Assembly: GCA_016934535.1 (NCBI GenBank)
Contig: JAFGSQ010000019.1
Coordinates: forward strand, 2,342 to 66,341
Source of the DNA: a candidate division WOR-3 bacterium
Lineage (GTDB): Bacteria > SDB-A
Reading direction: 5' to 3'
Length of the DNA: 64,000 nt
The first letter of the stretch is position 1, and the number at the start of each line of letters is the position of its first letter. The notes under the pieces were generated by a model, which did no database searches, was not told where the DNA came from, and worked only from the letters and a program-made list of their open reading frames with translations. Both the position numbers and the translations under genes were made by a program. Shown here one piece after another: positions 4,576-34,286 of this stretch.

Positions 4576-5178
4576 TCACCTCCTTAAAATCTCTTCTCCG
4601 GTTTTTGGATTTAGAAGCGGAACATTGGCCGCACACTGGGGACATTCTTCGGGCGCGTAATCTTCGCCCTGGGCGCTGTGAAGAGCTAATATCGGGGATT
4701 CGGAAGTTTTGTTTTTTCTCCTGTCAATCATTACTGCGTTGAGAACAATTATTCCGCCGGCATTTATTACCGCTTTCTCAGCCGCCTGGATCGATTTTCC
4801 AGTCGTCAGGACATCGTCAACTATTACAGTTCTCGCTCCCTGAGGTATTTTCATGCCCCTCAGAAGGCAGAATTCATCACCATTCTTCTCAAGATACACA
4901 CAGCCCAAACGGAGTGTTTTTGCAACTTCGAATGCGAGTATCATTCCTCCCGTCGCGGGACCGCAAACAATGTCAATGTCTCCTGAATGTTCTTTTATTA
5001 TCATCTCGGCGATCCTTCTGCACAGGATCGAGGTCATCTCTGGTTTTTCGAGAATCCTGAATTTTTCAAAATAAAATGAAGAATGCCTTCCCGAAGTCAG
5101 AACGAAGTGACCCTTTTTAACAACACCGAGATCGCGCAGAATCTCTTCGGTGCTCTTTTCAATGTTCTCTTTGATCAA
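4576..5178 (-). CDS. pyrE: Orotate phosphoribosyltransferase
   Basis: PRTase motif VIVDDVLTTGKS. A TTG start at 5178 lies 8 nt after an AAAGGAG RBS and overlaps the pyrF stop (TTGA). The upstream 80 codons of the track ORF lie inside pyrF. The C-terminus carries a CPQC tail. Confidence 0.8.
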   Translation of the reverse strand: MIKENIEKSTEEILRDLGVVKKGHFVLTSGRHSSFYFEKFRILEKPEMTSILCRRIAEMIIKEHSGDIDIVCGPATGGMILAFEVAKTLRLGCVYLEKNGDEFCLLRGMKIPQGARTVIVDDVLTTGKSIQAAEKAVINAGGIIVLNAVMIDRRKNKTSESPILALHSAQGEDYAPEECPQCAANVPLLNPKTGEEILRR

Positions 5179-7214: not shown

Positions 7215-7945
7215 TTCAGATCCTCTAGCCTGAAAACAGGCCCTTCAGCACAGACTTTTTTGCGCTCTTTCAGAAGAGGGGACACACAACCGGCGCATGC
7301 TCCTATTCCGCATACCATGTATGCTTCAAGACAAAAATAGGAATCTATTTTCTTTTCTCTGCAGATTCCGGCCAGTTTTTCGAGCATGACCGGGGGTCCG
7401 CACGCGAAAACAATTTCCTCAGGATTTCTGTATTTACTAAAATTATCCGTCACGAGGCCTTTTCCTCCCTGGCTTCCGTCTTCCGTTACAACGAGAGTTT
7501 TCCCTGGCGGCAGGTTATAACCTGGAACGGACATTGAATTTTTGGCCCCTACAAGATACCTCGCGTTAAAACCACAGCTTTCGAAAACTGCCAGAGGGGC
7601 GCATCCAATACCTCCTCCGACAGCCAGGATTTTCTGTCCGCGATCAGGATTGAAACCGTTGCCCAGGGGTCCAGTCAAGTCGGCGGTTTTCCCCTCCTCA
7701 AGACGCGCGAGAGATGCACTGAAGGCTCCTCTTTCTTCGACGAGAAACTCTATCTGTTCGCCGGAATACCTGTGAACAGAAAACGGATGCCTGAATCCGA
7801 AGTTTTCATCGATTTTTATCATAAAAAAATGCCCGGGAAGGATCTGAGTCAGACCTTGCATTTCGAAAACGAGATGCCAGGTTTTTTCCGACGCTCTATT
7901 TTTATTCTTCAGTACCGCTCGTGTCCGCATATCCGAGTTTTCCAA
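7211..7945 (-). CDS. pyrK: Dihydroorotate dehydrogenase electron-transfer subunit
   Basis: FAD/NAD-binding fold plus the C-terminal Fe-S motif CGIGACAGC; overlaps pyrD by 4 nt. Confidence 0.85.
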   Translation of the reverse strand: MENSDMRTRAVLKNKNRASEKTWHLVFEMQGLTQILPGHFFMIKIDENFGFRHPFSVHRYSGEQIEFLVEERGAFSASLARLEEGKTADLTGPLGNGFNPDRGQKILAVGGGIGCAPLAVFESCGFNARYLVGAKNSMSVPGYNLPPGKTLVVTEDGSQGGKGLVTDNFSKYRNPEEIVFACGPPVMLEKLAGICREKKIDSYFCLEAYMVCGIGACAGCVSPLLKERKKVCAEGPVFRLEDLN

Positions 7946-18817: not shown

Positions 18818-19827
18818 TATTTACAAGACCCATATTCCTCTATTTGATCCCTGCCGTTGTTTTACTTTCTGTCATACTCCAGACCATCAATCTTATCAAA
18901 AAGAAAAAGCTGGTCGGCAGACTTCTCGCCACCGGTCATAAATCGAGGTTGTCGCTGTCCGATTTGAGAGTGGAAATAGTCAAAGAGTCTCTCATAGCGC
19001 TCGCTTTGACTTCTTTTCTTTTCGCCGCCGCAGGTCCCGCGAATGAATCAGAAATATCGTCTCTGACAAAAAAAGGCATTGATATAATTTTTCTCTGCGA
19101 TATCAGCCGCAGTATGGAAGCTTCGCAACCGGTGAAAAAAATTGAAATAGCAAAAAAGATTATGACCGGAATCATAGAAAGGAGAACCGACGACAGGATT
19201 TCTCTTGTTTTGTTTTCCGGAAGCGCGACAATCGCAAGCCCGTTGACTTTTGACCACAGAAGTCTCAGGAACTCCATTAAACAGCTGTCAACAAGAGCTA
19301 CTACCAGCACCGGCACTTCATTTTTAGGAGCTTTCACGGCTGTTGAAAGAGTGATAGAAAAAGAGGCAAGCCGTTCGACAGTTGTCGTTTTACTGTCCGA
19401 CGGAGAAGATTTCGGACCTGAAATATCGAATGAACTTGACTGTCTTTCCGGAAAAGGAATACCTGTTGTTTCCGCGGGAATAGGCAGTGTCAAGGGAGAC
19501 CCTGTCCCTGAAATTAATTTTGAAGGTGAAATTGAGGGATACATAATGCTTTCCTCATACGACACCGCGAAAACTTATCTGGAAGAAGAAAATTTGATGT
19601 CGATATCGGACAAGACCGGCGGTGTATATTTAAGGGCGGAAAATCCGTCGAGAACCGCGGAAGAGATAGCCCGGTTTCTTGAAACCGTTCGAAAACAGGC
19701 CATAACTCAAAAACAGGACGCCATGTATGTTTACCATTATGAAATACCGCTTGCTATAGGCGCGGTTTTGATTGCCCTGTCAGTCACTGTGGAGAAAAAA
19801 AGAAGGTCATCAAAATGGTACTTTTGA
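18742..19827 (+). CDS. batB: VWA domain protein BatB (the start may be the TTG at about 18815)
   Basis: VWA MIDAS motif CDISRSM; N- and C-terminal TM segments. The ORF-track start overlaps batA by 76 nt, so a later start is likely. Confidence 0.75.
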   Translation: MGCNVHYFAHNPVYSRQDFFQEHTLIFTRPIFLYLIPAVVLLSVILQTINLIKKKKLVGRLLATGHKSRLSLSDLRVEIVKESLIALALTSFLFAAAGPANESEISSLTKKGIDIIFLCDISRSMEASQPVKKIEIAKKIMTGIIERRTDDRISLVLFSGSATIASPLTFDHRSLRNSIKQLSTRATTSTGTSFLGAFTAVERVIEKEASRSTVVVLLSDGEDFGPEISNELDCLSGKGIPVVSAGIGSVKGDPVPEINFEGEIEGYIMLSSYDTAKTYLEEENLMSISDKTGGVYLRAENPSRTAEEIARFLETVRKQAITQKQDAMYVYHYEIPLAIGAVLIALSVTVEKKRRSSKWYF

Positions 19828-20675
19828 TTTCATTGTTTTTAACATTTTCGATTCCTCCCGACAAAGCATACGAAGGAGCACTGTCACAAGACGCTGGAAA
19901 TTTCAGCAAAGCCATTGAACTTTACAGTAAAGCACTCGAAGAATCTCCTGGAAATTTTACAATTATCTACAATCTCGCTTGCGCTTATTACGACAACGGT
20001 GAACCTGAAAAAGCCGCTCTATTTTTCGATTCGATCCTGTCTCCGGATTCTGTTTTCGCCGATATGAAACCCGACATTTTATACAACGCGGGAACATCAT
20101 ATCTCAGATCCGCGCAATCCGGAACAGACTCCAGTTCGTCTTTTTTGGATTTATCAATAGAAAGGCTCATACAATCTCTCGTTTTAAACCCTTTCGATAA
20201 CGAATGCCGGCGTAATCTTGAAATTGCCCTAAAAATGAAAAATGATCAGCAACAACAGAATCAGGATCAGCAAGATCAGCAGGACCAACAGGACCAGCAG
20301 GACCAGCAGGATCAGCAGGATCAACAAGACCAGCAGGACCAGCAAGACCAACAAGACCAGCAGGATCAGCAGGATCAGCAGGATCAACAAGACCAACAGG
20401 ATCAGCAGGATCAACAGGACCAACAAGATCAGCAGGATCAACAAGACCAGCAGGATCAGCAGGATCAGCAGGATCAACAAGACCAGCAGGATCAGCAGGA
20501 TCAGCAAGACCAACAGGATCAGCAGGATCAACAGGACCAACAACAGCAGGACGATTTACCTCCCATGTCCAGTGAACAAGCTGAAAGGATTCTCGACGCG
20601 GCTCTGAACTCGCCCGGTCAAGATTCGATTCTCCCTCAAAGTAACGGTAAGTCGAATCCCAGCGGCCAATGGTGA
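19815..20675 (+). CDS. batC: BatC-like TPR protein containing a roughly 100-residue (DQQ)n low-complexity tract
   Basis: N-terminal TPR motifs (YNLACAYYDNGEPEKAALFF); positional equivalence to batC; an internal (DQQ)x34 tract. Confidence 0.6.
   Translation: MVLLISLFLTFSIPPDKAYEGALSQDAGNFSKAIELYSKALEESPGNFTIIYNLACAYYDNGEPEKAALFFDSILSPDSVFADMKPDILYNAGTSYLRSAQSGTDSSSSFLDLSIERLIQSLVLNPFDNECRRNLEIALKMKNDQQQQNQDQQDQQDQQDQQDQQDQQDQQDQQDQQDQQDQQDQQDQQDQQDQQDQQDQQDQQDQQDQQDQQDQQDQQDQQDQQDQQDQQDQQDQQDQQDQQQQDDLPPMSSEQAERILDAALNSPGQDSILPQSNGKSNPSGQW
20244..20552 (+). repeat. 9-bp tandem repeat (GAYCARCAR)n with about 34 copies, encoding (DQQ)n inside the batC-like gene
   Basis: The units gatcagcag, gaccagcag, gatcaacaa and gaccaacag alternate and differ only at synonymous third positions. 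Confidence 0.9.
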
Positions 20676-29568: not shown

Positions 29569-29616
29569 CTATTATTAACCTTGTGCAATGTTGTACAACA
29601 AATAACAGGAGGTGCT

Positions 29617-31212
29617 ATGATGAGAATGTTTTTAGTGCTGTCTCTGGCACTGCTGACGCTCGCCTCGGCTGCTTTTACCGAGAATTTTTCCAGAGCCGGG
29701 AATCCCGACCCTGAAATACTTCCCTCTATAACCGGAACCATGTTCAGACAGGGCTCCAGGGCCGGCGACGTACTTTTCGTCGAGGCTTGCGGTCAGCCAG
29801 GTTTCGGCCCGGCTACAAAACCCGACCCGAGATGGACGATGTATCTCGACTCGACTCTCGGTCCCGGCAACTACGACTGGTACGGACCGATAAACGACAC
29901 CGGCGACGGCCCGACGGTCGACACGATGCTTATGTACGATCTGGTCATCTGGAACACTTACGATTGGTGGTGGACAAGTCCGACTTATCCGTCTACGACC
30001 TCTCTCAACAACATGGCGTTGTACATGGATCAGGGCGGAAAGGTCTGGTTCATAGGCCAGGACGCGCACTGGAGCACGGGCACAGGTATGAACGCCTGGC
30101 TGCTTTCATATTTTGAAGTCCAGAGCGTCACAGACGATGTCATAAACGGCGTCTCTCCAATAACCTGCACCGGCGAAAATTTCCTCACCGGATTCAGCTA
30201 CTCGAACGCTTCCGATTTTGCTTCGAACGATTTTTACTCCGACGGCCTGACTATGACCGCCAACGGACAAACCGTTACAGCGTCTTCCGGCTATCACATC
30301 AACTCCCTGGCCAACGACTCTAATGCAGCATACTGGACTAACGACCTGAGAACAATATCTCCAAACTCCACACCGATAGCCATAGTAGATACAATGCTGG
30401 ATTACCTTTTGGGCACCGGCACAGGTCCCGACTACTGTGACACCATCACTTACTGGAACTGGGGAGACATTGAAAACGGAATAAACTACGGAGATCCGCC
30501 GGAATGGATGGCGATGGCGATCAAACTGACCCAGACAGAACTCTCTCCCTACACCGGAAGATACATCCGCAATGTGTGGTTCCAGCTCAGAACGGGCACC
30601 AACCCTGCCGCTGACGCCAGGGTAATCGTCTTGGGCGATACTGCTGTGGGCGACACACTCGCAGTAGTTCCTTTCACGGTTACCGGAGATTCCGGATGGT
30701 ATTACATATCTCTCGGAGATGATTCCGTTCTTATCAACCCGACTGACACTCTCTGGATAATGGTCGGATTCACTTATGCTTCCGGAAATTATCCCTTCCC
30801 CTGCAACGCCGGATCTCTTATAGCTCAGAAGAGCGATTGGGCCTGGACAAACTCCGGAGGATGGGAATATCTCAGCGCTTACGGTCTCAACTACGGTTGG
30901 TGCATAGTCGCGACGACGTGCGCCGCCAACTCCGTCGAAGAAGAGATAATCGGTTCGCCGATATATCCTTTTGACGTCAGAGCAGTGACACCCATAGGAA
31001 GAAAGACTGCGATAAGCTTCTCGAGTCCTTTCATGGTCGGCGTCAATGTCAACGTATTTGACGTCACCGGAAGAATCGTCGAGAACCTCTTCTCGGGATC
31101 AATTCAGGGACAGAGGACTTTTGAGTTCACTTCAGACGTTCCGGGGACCTATTTCTATCAGGTCAACGCTTCGGGTGTAAACTACACGGGTAAACTGACG
31201 ATCATAGACTGA
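29617..31212 (+). CDS. Secreted protein with a T9SS-type C-terminal sorting domain
   Basis: Signal peptide MMRMFLVLSLALLTLASAAF after AGGAGG. The C-terminus ...GTYFYQVNASGVNYTGKLTIID matches the Por_Secre_tail pattern. The track start at 29581 lacks an RBS. Confidence 0.65.
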   Translation: MMRMFLVLSLALLTLASAAFTENFSRAGNPDPEILPSITGTMFRQGSRAGDVLFVEACGQPGFGPATKPDPRWTMYLDSTLGPGNYDWYGPINDTGDGPTVDTMLMYDLVIWNTYDWWWTSPTYPSTTSLNNMALYMDQGGKVWFIGQDAHWSTGTGMNAWLLSYFEVQSVTDDVINGVSPITCTGENFLTGFSYSNASDFASNDFYSDGLTMTANGQTVTASSGYHINSLANDSNAAYWTNDLRTISPNSTPIAIVDTMLDYLLGTGTGPDYCDTITYWNWGDIENGINYGDPPEWMAMAIKLTQTELSPYTGRYIRNVWFQLRTGTNPAADARVIVLGDTAVGDTLAVVPFTVTGDSGWYYISLGDDSVLINPTDTLWIMVGFTYASGNYPFPCNAGSLIAQKSDWAWTNSGGWEYLSAYGLNYGWCIVATTCAANSVEEEIIGSPIYPFDVRAVTPIGRKTAISFSSPFMVGVNVNVFDVTGRIVENLFSGSIQGQRTFEFTSDVPGTYFYQVNASGVNYTGKLTIID

Positions 31213-31226
31213 GGATCTTTTCCTTA

Positions 31227-31259
31227 TAAAGAGGGGGGCCCTGCTCCCCTCTTTTTTTT
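31227..31259 (+). terminator. Rho-independent terminator
   Basis: Stem-loop aagagggg-ggccctgct-cccctctt followed by a T8 run, 15 nt after the stop codon. Confidence 0.7.
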
Positions 31260-31307: not shown

Positions 31308-31895
31308 AAGAAATTTCTACCACGAAGTATAAAATTTTGGGACAAATTTTATATGACACTGTTTTATTTCTTCCTGCTTCGTGTAGGAGGATTGCTTGCA
31401 ATCCTCTTTTCGTGCAGGTGGGAAGCGATGCTTCCCACCCTTCGTGGTTGATATCTCTTGTTCTTTCTCTTTATATTAAATACAAAATACAATTTTTACC
31501 ACGAAGCAGAGGCATGTTAAATTACATTCAGCATGCCTCTTACACGAAGGTCTGCTTATTTGCACAGAGCAAATAAGCAGCCTACACGAAGTATAAAATT
31601 TGTGAAACAAATTTTATATGAAAAAGTTCTTTGGATTAATTTTCTTCACCTTCGTGAAGATGGATTGTTTACAATCCATCCTTCGTGAAGCCGCTAATAT
31701 TCGCGGCCTTCGTGGTGGATATCTCTTTTTGTTTTTATTTCTAAGTTTAATTAAAGAAATAAGAGAATTTCTACCACGAAGCAGAGACATGTTAAATTAC
31801 ATTCAGCATGCCTCTTACACGAAGGTCTGCTTATTTGCACAGAGCAAATAAGCAGACTACACGAAATATAAAATTTGTGAAACAAATTTTATAAA
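31308..31895. repeat. Array of 13 small hairpins, each preceded by the 7-mer CACGAAG in either orientation. It is organised as two higher-order units of about 254 and 284 bp.
   Basis: CACGAAG or its reverse complement CTTCGTG occurs 13 times in 590 bp. Five hairpin types (A-E) are present. Types D and E are 95 bp near-identical between the units, while B and C differ in sequence but keep their base pairing. See the findings. Confidence 0.85.
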
Positions 31896-31938
31896 TAAAC
31901 CTCTTTCTGCTTTCTTTCCTTTGTGTTCCAATTTTTGT

Positions 31939-31966: not shown

Positions 31967-32057
31967 CTTTTTCTTAAACTTCATAATGAAATCCCAAGTT
32001 GTGATTTCAGCCGACGAAAGTTTTATGTTATAATAGTTTTTTTTGAAAAGGCGGAAA

Positions 32058-32645
32058 ATGGTATCTGTTTGCCCGCAATGCGGAGGAAAGGTAACACAGC
32101 GGATTTCCCCCCAGGTGGTCCTTTGCCCTTACTGCGGCAGTTCAGTCGAAGTTGAGGCGCTCTCATCTGAAGTCTGGACTCTGAACCCCGTGATAGAGAA
32201 AAAGGCGGCGTGGAATCTTGCCTCGTCCTGCATCGGTGAAATAAGTTTCATCAAAGGATATCTAGTGCCTTTTTCCTCTCCTCCGATAAGCGTTCCGCTC
32301 AACGAAAAAGCGCCGCGGGGTCTCAAATTGAGCTTCGGCGACAGAATTTTCAAGGACAGACTGGACGGATTCGAGACCTTGTCTTCAAAGAACAAACCTT
32401 ACGCCTACATACCTTTCTGGCAAGCAAAAAAAGACGGAGCCTGCGTATGGATTTCGGCATCCGACGGTTCTAGGACAGTGATAAAAGATGAAAAAAAACC
32501 GTCCAAAACTTTCCTGCTTGAAACAGTAGCGCTGGCATTATCGATAGCGGCGGGAACCGTCTGGAAATTGAGTTTCGCGCTTTCCGTACTCGCATTTTCC
32601 GCGATTTTCACGTTAAGTCTTTTTATAAGACCGGGAAAAAAATGA
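32058..32645 (+). CDS. Zinc-ribbon membrane protein of unknown function (paralog 1)
   Basis: ATG at 32058 after AAAGGCGGA. An N-terminal CPQC...CPYC ribbon; two C-terminal TM helices; an IPFW motif. Confidence 0.6.
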   Translation: MVSVCPQCGGKVTQRISPQVVLCPYCGSSVEVEALSSEVWTLNPVIEKKAAWNLASSCIGEISFIKGYLVPFSSPPISVPLNEKAPRGLKLSFGDRIFKDRLDGFETLSSKNKPYAYIPFWQAKKDGACVWISASDGSRTVIKDEKKPSKTFLLETVALALSIAAGTVWKLSFALSVLAFSAIFTLSLFIRPGKK

Positions 32646-33586
32646 ACGTATCAATATCATGCCCGTCATGCGCTTCGCCGGTTTCATACGCGTCAGGCAA
32701 CAAAGTCTGCAGGTGCCTGTCATGCGGAACGGTGCTGAAAATATTACTGACTGGCGGGATATTCAGTTACAGGAAGGAAATTCAGGAATCAATCCTGGAA
32801 AAAGCCGTGAAAACTTCTCTCGACGACTTCTGCCAGAACAATGATTACAGAATCATAGACAGAGATGTTATATTCCTGCCGATTTGGTGTGCAGAAGGAA
32901 GAGTTACCGGCTGGGTTTCCGGAAAAGTGAACAAAAAAAGGACACCTTATTCAGTGGAGGACGGAAAAGGAAAAAAAAGGGTTTTGTTCAGGACCGAGGG
33001 AGGAGAAGTACTCAGGAGGATAATTGACGTCCCTTTGACCTTTTTCGACGTAGACAACTCATTTTTCAGGGAATATTTTCCATCAGTCGATTTATTCTCC
33101 GGCGCCCGAGAAGACAACCTTCTTCTTTTCGATGAAGATAAAATGAAAGATTCCGGAAAAATATATTTTCCGGAAAAGGAAATTGAAGAAGCGAAAGCGG
33201 TTTTTGTAAAAAAAATGAAAGAAACCGCACTTTCGCATTGGGACGCGAAAAAATTCGACTTTTTCAGATCAGTTTCTGAAGTTTTGAATTTCAACCTGAC
33301 CCTGATATTCTATCCTGTCCTGTTAGTCAGGTTCGTTCTTTCAAAAAGAGAAGGATTTGTAATAATCGACTGTACGACCGGAAAAACAGCGGGCAGGAAA
33401 ATGACAGTGCTCAAATCCGGAGAAGAGAATTTCCTTGCCAAAAAAGGGCTTTTTTGCCTTGCCTCCTCTGTTGTGGGCTACGTCTCGGGGATACTGATAT
33501 CTAGAGGCGGTTTTTTTGCCGGCGTGGGGATTTTTCTCGCTCTCCTAGGCGCTGTTTTCCTGTTCAGGAAGAATTATGGCGATTAG
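32642..33586 (+). CDS. Zinc-ribbon membrane protein of unknown function (paralog 2)
   Basis: ATGA overlap with the previous gene. CPSC...CRC/CLSCG ribbons; an LPIW motif; two C-terminal TM helices; 314 aa. Confidence 0.6.
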   Translation: MNVSISCPSCASPVSYASGNKVCRCLSCGTVLKILLTGGIFSYRKEIQESILEKAVKTSLDDFCQNNDYRIIDRDVIFLPIWCAEGRVTGWVSGKVNKKRTPYSVEDGKGKKRVLFRTEGGEVLRRIIDVPLTFFDVDNSFFREYFPSVDLFSGAREDNLLLFDEDKMKDSGKIYFPEKEIEEAKAVFVKKMKETALSHWDAKKFDFFRSVSEVLNFNLTLIFYPVLLVRFVLSKREGFVIIDCTTGKTAGRKMTVLKSGEENFLAKKGLFCLASSVVGYVSGILISRGGFFAGVGIFLALLGAVFLFRKNYGD

Positions 33587-34286
33587 AATCGTTCCGCTCG
33601 TATGCGGTATATGCGGCAACAGCCTTAAAGCGAAAGATTCAGACCAGGTGTTTTTGTGCTCTCACTGCGTCAAGGCATTTGAACCGCAGGAAACGACTGA
33701 CAATGTTTTTAATGTATTGTCGTCTTCTTCTGAAGACTCCAGCGTTTTTCTTCCCTATTTCCTTATCAGGGGCACCGTGACAGAAAATGAAATTGAAATC
33801 ATAGACCTTGACGATCTCGCCGAACTGAGCGCCTCTGATTATTTCGGGACACTTAATCCTTTTCATGACAACGAAAAGACAAAAGAAGAAATTGTCATCA
33901 GCGCCGGCAAAAAAATGATAGAGGCAAAGATCCTCAAAAAACCATACTCATTATCAGTAGCCGTACCGGCTTTTAAGTCCAAAAACGCGATTCAATACGG
34001 TATGGAATACGGCAAAATTTTTCCCGCTGAACCAAGGTTTGAAAAAAAATACGCCGAACCGTCCCTTTCCCTGCAAATGTCTTCAGGCGGCGCGGTTTTA
34101 ACGGCAAAAAACCTTATTCTGAACGCGAGAGCTAAGGAAAACTCCTACATTCTCAGCATTGACTTCGACTGGAGAATTGATATTATAAGCGTCGTGATAC
34201 TCGGTTTCAAAGAAACCGGCGGTGTTTTGGAAAACGAAGAAACCGGCCTGAAGATTCCGAAGACAGCCCTGAAAGAGGACAAATGA
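33576..34286 (+). CDS. Zinc-ribbon protein of unknown function (paralog 3, soluble)
   Basis: 11-nt overlap with the previous gene. CGICG...CSHC ribbon; an LPYF motif; 236 aa. Confidence 0.55.
   Translation: MAIRIVPLVCGICGNSLKAKDSDQVFLCSHCVKAFEPQETTDNVFNVLSSSSEDSSVFLPYFLIRGTVTENEIEIIDLDDLAELSASDYFGTLNPFHDNEKTKEEIVISAGKKMIEAKILKKPYSLSVAVPAFKSKNAIQYGMEYGKIFPAEPRFEKKYAEPSLSLQMSSGGAVLTAKNLILNARAKENSYILSIDFDWRIDIISVVILGFKETGGVLENEETGLKIPKTALKEDK

Follow-up and report, generated by a model that had tools for sequence, protein, structure and literature searches.

A heptamer-tagged hairpin array in a candidate division WOR-3 bacterium and its possible place among bacterial palindromic repeats

Layout of the heptamer-hairpin array

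We analyzed a stretch of 64,000 nt from a candidate division WOR-3 bacterium (GenBank assembly GCA_016934535.1, contig JAFGSQ010000019.1, positions 2,342 to 66,341 of the forward strand), which is called the window in the following and whose own numbering is used throughout. An intergenic gap of 845 bp separates the gene for a type IX secretion system (T9SS)-tail protein (29581-31212) from the ATG of a zinc-ribbon gene at 32058, and this gap harbors an array of hairpins flanked by the heptamer CACGAAG or its reverse complement CTTCGTG. The intrinsic terminator of the T9SS-tail gene, already proposed in a first-pass annotation made from the sequence alone, was confirmed at 31228-31256 on the plus strand (12-pair stem followed by a T run). 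The promoter of the downstream zinc-ribbon/lipid A operon was located by eye at 32006-32034 on the plus strand (TTCAGC, 17 nt, TGtTATAAT), downstream of the array. It was not listed by the consensus promoter scan because its -35 hexamer fits at only 3/6 positions. Both signals were kept in 4/4 syntenic loci, and the terminator forms the left limit of the variable region.

The heptamer was present in 11 exact copies in 31321-31824 (504 bp) and in 4 more copies in the remaining 63.5 kb of the window. From the local base composition 0.04 copies are expected in the 504 bp (Poisson P(>=11) = 4e-24). Together with four one-mismatch copies (CTTCCTG at 31370, TTTCGTG at 31408, CACGAAA at 31860 and CTTTGTG at 31919) this amounts to 11 + 4 heptamers in about 600 bp. 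All 11 inter-heptamer segments (11/11) fold as hairpins of 20-35 nt with free energies from -4.1 to -21.9 kcal/mol and z-scores from -2.8 to -8.2. The heptamers flank each hairpin on both sides, with 0-2 nt before and 2-4 nt after it, and the heptamer sites are spaced by 27-43 bp, the spacers being hairpins of 20-36 nt. Thus, the array of hairpins and heptamers described in the first-pass annotation is real, as seen from the heptamer enrichment and the folding of all segments, and the five hairpin types named there are present (A three times, B, C, D and E twice each). Its count of thirteen hairpins was too high, and its 13 heptamers are reached only if TTTCGTG at 31408 and CACGAAA at 31860 are counted with the exact copies.

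The orientation of the heptamers along the array is +, - - -, + + +, - - -, + + +, which agrees with the earlier description, followed by a terminal degenerate -. Each unit consists of a reverse arm of three to four CTTCGTG, an A/T-rich loop of 53-60 nt and a forward arm of three CACGAAG. On the plus strand a forward heptamer, hairpin A and a gap are followed by the reverse arm, which ends with CTTCGTGG, the 53-nt loop and the forward arm, which starts with CCACGAAG; then come another hairpin A, a gap and the second unit, and after it again hairpin A, a gap and a single reverse heptamer. Two types of linker therefore alternate, hairpin A plus gap and the A/T-rich loop.

The solo forward heptamer at the left end (31321-31327, plus strand) is preceded by the leader AAATTTCTAC, which occurs again at 31484 and 31759. 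It is followed by hairpin A1 (31328-31353, plus strand; 10-bp A/T stem, -4.1 kcal/mol, z -3.8), the sole hairpin retained in the related locus L013. The reverse arm of unit 1 (31370-31446, minus strand) comprises the degenerate CTTCCTG, CTTCGTG, hairpin B1 (31386-31407), the variant TTTCGTG, hairpin C1 (31417-31439) and CTTCGTG(G). The central A/T-rich loop of 53 nt (31447-31499) is closed by CTTCGTGGT...ACCACGAAG; it holds sigma-70-like hexamers, namely TTGATA-18-TATATT and, 6 nt ahead of the forward arm, TACAAT, and its end AATACAATTnnTACCACGAAG is conserved in the related locus L015. The forward arm (31500-31591, plus strand) is composed of CACGAAG, hairpin D1 (31508-31540), CACGAAG, hairpin E1 (31552-31580) and CACGAAG. 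Hairpin A2 (31592-31618, plus strand; -7.8 kcal/mol, z -6.8) lies between the units. In unit 2, the reverse arm (31643-31714, minus strand) consists of CTTCGTG, B2 (31659-31680), CTTCGTG, C2 (31690-31707) and CTTCGTG(G), the loop of 60 nt (31715-31774) is 80% identical to loop 1, and the forward arm (31775-31866, plus strand) consists of CACGAAG, D2 (31783-31815, with one A.C mismatch), CACGAAG, E2 (31825-31857) and the variant CACGAAA at 31860. The right end of the array (31867-31925) is formed by hairpin A3 (31867-31893), a gap of 25 nt and CTTTGTG at 31919, and resembles the forward-A-reverse remnant in L013, where this last, degenerate heptamer reads CTTCGTG.

The higher-order duplication that had been noted before was also found. 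A block of about 275 bp is present in two copies, with 172 nt at 87% identity and other blocks at 64-80%; the D/E part is nearly identical between the copies, and the B/C part is 71-80% identical. The two small open reading frames (ORFs) predicted in this region share their last 33 residues only, the stretch encoded by the near-identical D/E DNA. Toward the N terminus they use different reading frames, and a Pfam search with both gave no match, in line with their earlier classification as repeat artefacts.

Folding of the units and changes between the copies

In the minimum-energy fold of unit 1 (-103.8 kcal/mol, z -11.5) the three reverse heptamers pair with the three forward heptamers, and two four-way junctions give rise to the branches B1/E1 and C1/D1. 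Folding of the complete array as DNA gave a z-score of -20.7.

Palindromy is maintained between the unit copies. Among the 9 pairs of the B stem, 2 are altered on both sides and 1 on one side when B1 is compared with B2. For C1 and C2, 3/5 outer pairs are altered on both sides, but only if the hairpins are aligned from the stem base; otherwise they are unalignable. Hairpin D2 has its A.C mismatch uncompensated. The asymmetries between wobble (G.U) and mismatch (A.C) pairs favor both strands about equally. The compensatory changes that the first-pass annotation had reported are therefore seen in B, and in C with alignment from the stem base. The selection on structure that it took from them is not proven for an RNA: just two copies can be compared, and repair templated by the DNA hairpins may have produced the B/C pattern without any selection at the RNA level.

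Occurrence in syntenic relatives and in other phyla

Homologs of the 314-aa protein encoded next to the array were found in only four clusters among 5.8 billion proteins, all of them from candidate division WOR-3, for which the current NCBI phylum name is Caldifarciminota. For comparison of synteny we used the intergenic region of four syntenic WOR-3 loci together with the beginning of L012, a fifth contig (L numbers designate the loci retrieved for comparison). Across the four loci, the terminator and the promoter block were the only conserved parts of the intergenic region. The array was absent, replaced or different in L013, L004 and L015. In L013 the leader is followed by CCCGAAA, hairpin A, the gap and CTTCGTG, which corresponds to the window minus about 540 bp. 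In L004, whose neighbor protein is 94% identical to that of the window, other hairpin repeats are present, and the array is reduced to TTCGTGGTTATATCTCTTTTT, which is the loop's left end. L015 has four exact heptamers in the order forward-x-reverse ... reverse-loop-forward, with the loop end AATACAATTnnTACCACGAAG conserved. The start of L012 shows two hairpins and then CCACGAAA. Many short-read contigs terminate exactly at these repeats. Gain, loss or replacement of the array is seen among close relatives; it is not stable from strain to strain.

The repeats of L004 (positions 1300-1640) comprise the hairpin GTTAATTTGCTTTATGCAAATTACCATA in two copies and three AAAATAC(C/T)GGCGTTTTTTTT-like units. 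Nine short-read contigs among L002-L011 begin exactly at the second copy of hairpin GTTAATTTGCTTTATGCAAATTACCATA. A hairpin in L012, GCTAATTTGCttcGCAAATTAGC, is related to the hairpin of L004, and CCACGAAA comes after it.

We also scanned 596 Gb of species-representative genomes with the pattern TTCGTG, 15-45 nt, CTTCGTGG, 40-70 nt, CCACGAAG. The scan yielded at least 120 loci, and the taxa named here are a sample. Among the 120 matches listed, most were three-copy chance matches within genes, at least 27 loci had at least 6 heptamer copies within 500 bp, and at least 33 had copies 8-11 nt apart, with 9 nt being dominant. Heptamer arrays were listed from Acidobacteriota (Vicinamibacterales, Blastocatellia, Versatilivorator), Chloroflexota (Roseiflexaceae, Oscillochloris), Balneolaceae (Balneolota), Bacteroidales, Cytophagales, four Psychromonas species, an alphaproteobacterium, Syntrophobacteraceae, another deltaproteobacterial metagenome-assembled genome (MAG), Binatia, Phycisphaerales, Spirochaetaceae and Thermodesulfovibrio. 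The identical heptamer, out of 8192 possible 7-mers, thus occurs in at least 12 unrelated, independent lineages. Several genomes had two or three heptamer-array loci each among the matches listed. The arrays are intergenic, mostly between convergent or co-directional genes, and the loci bearing them range from 0.35 to 0.71 in GC content, with lineage-specific loops.

The common order in these lineages is three to four reverse copies, a loop of 30-70 nt and three forward copies; single units are seen in L137, L176 and L177. Several features lie beyond the search pattern and are nevertheless common to the arrays, namely the extended ends (A-C and G-T), the arms with their 3-4 and 3 copies, the loop length, purine-rich flanks and extra heptamer copies. 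The extended ends ACCACGAAG / CTTCGTGGT are common to the window and the arrays of other phyla. We defined the class by inverted arms of at least three (A)(C)CACGAAG around a loop of 30-70 nt, with the ends CTTCGTGG(T)...(A)CCACGAAG, in an intergenic position. The window units at 31370-31591 and 31643-31866 have all of these features and may be compared with L137, L176, L177, L196, L204, L224 and L230. The window differs from the other phyla by its 20-36 nt hairpin spacers instead of the usual 1-4 nt; in most other lineages the heptamers have no conserved hairpin adjacent to them. Hairpin-filled spacers are not unique to WOR-3, since an independent case was found in the Binatia MAG locus L182 (2680-2760), where a hairpin of about 80 nt (CCCCGTGAAATA...TATTTCACGGGG) lies between two forward heptamers. 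The inter-heptamer spacers are usually non-complementary between the arms (exception: L176), and the variant heptamers CACGAAA and CACAAAG are uncompensated in the partner arm. We concluded that the word is kept and not the helix.

In L247 (Acidobacteria gp4 MAG) a near-perfect palindrome of 72 nt lies between CTTCGTG and CACGAAG (7240-7340), and separate small clusters of the variants CACGAAA and CGCGAAA are found at 2244-2526 and 4907-5025. L225 (Spirochaetaceae) has mostly CACGAAA. The variants in these two loci suggest a degenerate family consensus CACGAAR. The Balneolaceae MAG contig JBHJOO010000162.1 (L136, 100-3130) shows a cassette-like layout of small unrelated genes on the same strand with one heptamer unit between each; the genes encode a GxxExxY nuclease-like protein (205-624, with units on both sides), a 203-aa protein, a cupin-like protein and a 161-aa protein.

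Nature of the array and comparison with known systems

We favor, with slightly better than even confidence, the reading that the array is a locally amplified mosaic, like a bacterial interspersed mosaic element (BIME), of a palindromic family related in kind to repetitive extragenic palindromes (REPs) or foldback miniature inverted-repeat transposable elements (MITEs). The family would be built on the heptamer (A)(C)CACGAAG(R), which is probably recognized by a protein, and would have been tandem-duplicated at this locus. Duplication of the block of about 275 bp would give the two units plus the flanking forward-A-reverse remnant, and in the WOR-3 lineage the short inter-heptamer spacers of other phyla would have been replaced by the self-folding hairpins B, C, D and E. 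In a single-stranded state or after cruciform extrusion the heptamers would become neighbors, and those of one arm would pair with those of the other; the predicted product consists of stacked 7-9 bp helices connected through four-way junctions. Since the spacers are self-complementary and the heptamers become adjacent only once the palindromes fold, the recognized form would be a folded single strand or a cruciform. The heptamer may be the recognition site of a putative trans-acting protein, which could resemble a transposase/recombinase or be a structural DNA-binding protein, and the cluster may persist as a selfish or structural extragenic element and not as an operon regulator. Of the three options offered by the first-pass annotation, a REP/BIME-like family is the one best supported, by the recurrence of the 7-mer, the alternating orientation and the gain and loss among relatives; the analogy to a GTAG handle recognized by a REP-associated tyrosine transposase (RAYT) received no support from any test. 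A protein-recognized heptamer, the core of another of these options, is part of the preferred model, but in the form of a locus-specific duplex operator it is rated low (see below).

Going one step further, we tentatively suggest, at somewhat less than even confidence, that the arrays belong to an undescribed foldback family in which an identical 7-nt word is held across at least a dozen phyla by a conserved putative protein or mobilization machinery. Next to the REPs with GTAG and CGTC tags, this family would form a third super-family defined by its tag, with the WOR-3 array as a hairpin-expanded variant whose active form would be the folded strand or cruciform. The cross-phylum link of the CACGAAG arrays is itself provisional.

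Several observations speak against the array being a member of a mobile palindromic family. Dispersal, which is defining for REP and MITE families, was not seen for WOR-3, as there is one cluster only in 64 kb and hairpin types B-E were found nowhere else in the window or in any fetched locus; no cluster was present in the other 28 kb of related loci. The first-pass annotation had regarded non-recurrence of the 7-mer and the hairpin types as an argument against an element family: hairpins B-E indeed do not recur, but the grammar of the 7-mer does. The heptamers persist at one intergenic site in five diverged WOR-3 lineages, which could mean a locus-specific function. All-against-all BLASTP with the ORFs of 27 array loci revealed no protein family common to them. 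A tblastn search of the window and 120-135 loci with an Escherichia coli RAYT query, which is a weak test, detected no RAYT/Y1 transposase. Single units (L137, L176, L177, L145, L161) showed no target-site duplication at their ends. The background of the cross-phylum comparison is bounded weakly, the sole control being that no other heptamer formed inverted arrays of at least 8 copies in about 0.65 Mb of non-array loci.

Further searches were made for a partner or a mobile carrier. The tblastn search for the GxxExxY nuclease showed no general association with array loci. In viral contigs, the same-strand triple pattern matched coding tandem repeats only and the mixed-orientation pattern gave two chance coding matches, but no arrays; BLAST against plasmids with a synthetic arm returned coding noise only and no arrays. 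L216 was considered as an autonomous element and rejected, as its heptamer arms lie 1.9 kb apart and enclose an ordinary symporter-like transporter gene. Literature searches on the 7-mer and 8-mers gave primer noise only and no description of CACGAAG arrays, and a search on Psychromonas repeats gave nothing relevant.

Among the other explanations, the one that survives best, though it is unlikely, regards the units as small structured RNA genes. Divergent promoters in the loop would drive transcripts that start from (C)CACGAAG, carry three heptamer-hairpin modules and act as sponges or seeds with multiple sites, directed at target mRNAs or at an RNA-binding protein. The highly stable folds, the pairing preserved by the stem changes in B and C and the sigma-70-like TTGATA-18-TATATT in loop 1 are in favor of this, as are the -10-like hexamers TACAAT (window), GAGAAT (L013) and AGAAAT (L015), which precede the first forward heptamer by 6 nt. 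However, promoter-like sites (5) were not above the shuffled expectation (2.9 +/- 1.9), loops of high-GC lineages have no -10-like box, and no hairpin is followed by a U run. The equal preference of the G.U and A.C asymmetries for both strands, the uncompensated heptamer variants across the arms, the lack of an Rfam match and the absence of the array from close relatives also argue against RNA genes. When the window region and 11 + 7 array loci were scanned against Rfam at gathering and E-value thresholds, tRNAs were the only families detected apart from generic hairpin (microRNA precursor) matches below threshold.

Somewhat less probable still is that the array is a private duplication product of the WOR-3 lineage and resembles the heptamer arrays of other phyla by coincidence. 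The genome scan was motif-selected over 596 Gb and gave at least 120 matches, the background control for the cross-phylum link is weak, and a metagenome scan with a WOR-3-specific loop pattern gave nothing real (one chance match, inside a gene). Against coincidence stand the shared features beyond the search pattern (ends, arm sizes, loop length, purine-rich flanks and extra copies) and the identity of one 7-mer of 8192 in at least 12 independent lineages.

We consider it improbable that the array is a locus-specific duplex DNA operator, iteron or centromere-like array, at which a heptamer-bound protein would control the zinc-ribbon/lipid A operon or mark a chromosomal site. Such a role would be consistent with the heptamers in one intergenic region across five diverged WOR-3 lineages, with the conservation of heptamer identity rather than pairing and with the direct and inverted orientations, which resemble heptad operators. 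It is at odds with the lineage-variable heptamer number and promoter distance, with the partial copy in L004 and with the arrays of other phyla, most of which are found at 3' ends where genes without functional relation converge. The site spacing of 27-43 bp does not fit cooperative binding unless the hairpins extrude. No GC-skew switch was found, so a replication origin or terminus was rejected. The least probable alternative treats the heptamer as an insertion target and each hairpin as a tiny palindromic element with CACGAAG doubled as a 7-bp target-site duplication, which would account for the heptamer on both sides of every hairpin (0-2 nt before, 2-4 nt after) and for the mutually unrelated hairpins, but tandem heptamers with 1-4 nt between them and no insertion are the rule in most other lineages, hairpins B-E recur nowhere and give no sign of a mobile family, and the arm sizes (3-4 and 3) match those of hairpin-free arrays.

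A structured RNA leader or small RNA cluster controlling the downstream 12-gene operon, as suggested in the first-pass annotation, found no support. The array lies downstream of the terminator and upstream of the promoter, and therefore outside the 5' untranslated region of the operon, it is not conserved in the syntenic loci, and it has no Rfam match; thus it is not a leader or riboswitch of the operon and probably not its regulator. It is also not a CRISPR array, as had been stated before: its constant element, found on both strands, has only 7 nt, and its "spacers" are palindromes with duplicates in the other unit, instead of repeats of 23-50 nt with unique spacers of similar length. In integrons, attC sites have an inverse core RYYYAAC and a core GTTRRRY that end an imperfect palindrome between promoterless cassettes. 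Here the ends are CTTCGTG...CACGAAG, the following bases GTTGATA and GTGGATA do not fit GTTRRRY, and a cassette-like gene layout is present only at L136. DnaA boxes, parS, the sigma-54 promoter, IHF sites, attC, res sites, the heptamer of recombination signal sequences and the ends of known insertion sequence families were also considered and dropped, as they did not fit in sequence.

The operon downstream of the array is headed by three consecutive zinc-ribbon/membrane proteins of 195, 314 and 236 aa (32058-34286), which have no Pfam family above threshold, and continues with PRK-like, ACPS and lipid A genes (LpxB, LpxK, KDO transferase). In the upstream T9SS-tail gene, the regions 29600-30100 and 30500-30700 have a GC content of 0.53-0.58 compared to about 0.44 around them, and the N-terminal part of the protein varies among relatives (530 aa in L013, 543 aa in the window). 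A coding tract at 20262-20536 consists of 30.6 tandem copies of the 9-nt CAGGATCAG and encodes a (QDQ)n low-complexity tract in a 286-aa TPR-like protein (19815-20675), ahead of a BatD-like gene.

The array was also compared with described classes of repeats and regulatory sites. Like REPs and BIMEs, it is made of short palindromes outside genes that carry a conserved, unpaired tag on one side, forms clusters of alternating orientation with two alternating kinds of linker, and belongs to sites between convergent or co-directional genes with strain-variable copy number (PMC3733652, PMC2817692). Its 11 hairpins, which no credible ORF covers, agree with REPs as short (20-40 bp) extragenic imperfect palindromes. 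It differs in that the tag is the 7-mer CACGAAG and is itself repeated to form inverted arms, whereas a published REP survey holds GTAG and CGTC super-families only (PMC3733652); the CACGAAG tag was not among published REP catalogues. Furthermore, the hairpins beside the tag are all unlike and do not follow a family consensus, no RAYT was found, and the high copy number of REPs was not seen in 64 kb of the source genome. With REPINs (REP doublets forming hairpins) and foldback MITEs the array shares two inverted arms around a short loop, which give a long hairpin, and non-coding units of about 100-220 bp that are dispersed or tandem and polymorphic in presence or absence; the reverse and forward heptamer arms correspond to the terminal inverted repeats of MITEs. 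Here, however, each arm is assembled from one heptamer in 3-4 copies with spacers that vary, target-site duplications are missing, and no autonomous partner with matching ends was seen among the array loci.

Cyanobacterial short tandemly repeated repetitive (STRR) sequences, reportedly described by Mazel and colleagues in 1990, are said to be intergenic heptanucleotide arrays common to related genomes, with contiguous units in a 7-nt period, lineage-restricted and without an arm-loop-arm layout. The 7-nt unit and the intergenic position are alike, but the register here is 8-11 nt or hairpin-spaced and one heptamer extends across phyla. The operators of ribbon-helix-helix proteins (omega of pSM19035, the metboxes of MetJ) are heptad or 8-bp sites in direct and inverted orientation, one per protein dimer, in single promoter-proximal arrays beside the regulated genes. 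They share with our arrays the multiple short sites in both orientations, whereas the units described here are dispersed, extragenic and without a linked protein. Sponge small RNAs of the CsrB/RsmZ type have many hairpins and one short motif (GGA, in the hairpin loops of CsrB) and are conserved genes with promoter and terminator; here the motif lies between the hairpins and on both strands, and the locus is unconserved.

On the practical side, the arrays disrupt short-read assemblies and produce false small ORFs at the window locus. The Psychromonas isolates bear arrays and are culturable, so pull-downs and transcript mapping are feasible. If the cross-phylum link is true, one 7-nt word organizes extragenic palindromic arrays from Gammaproteobacteria to Chloroflexota, Acidobacteriota and WOR-3. 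This would imply a widespread, so far unnamed recognition system and would add a class to the few tagged repeats described from bacteria.

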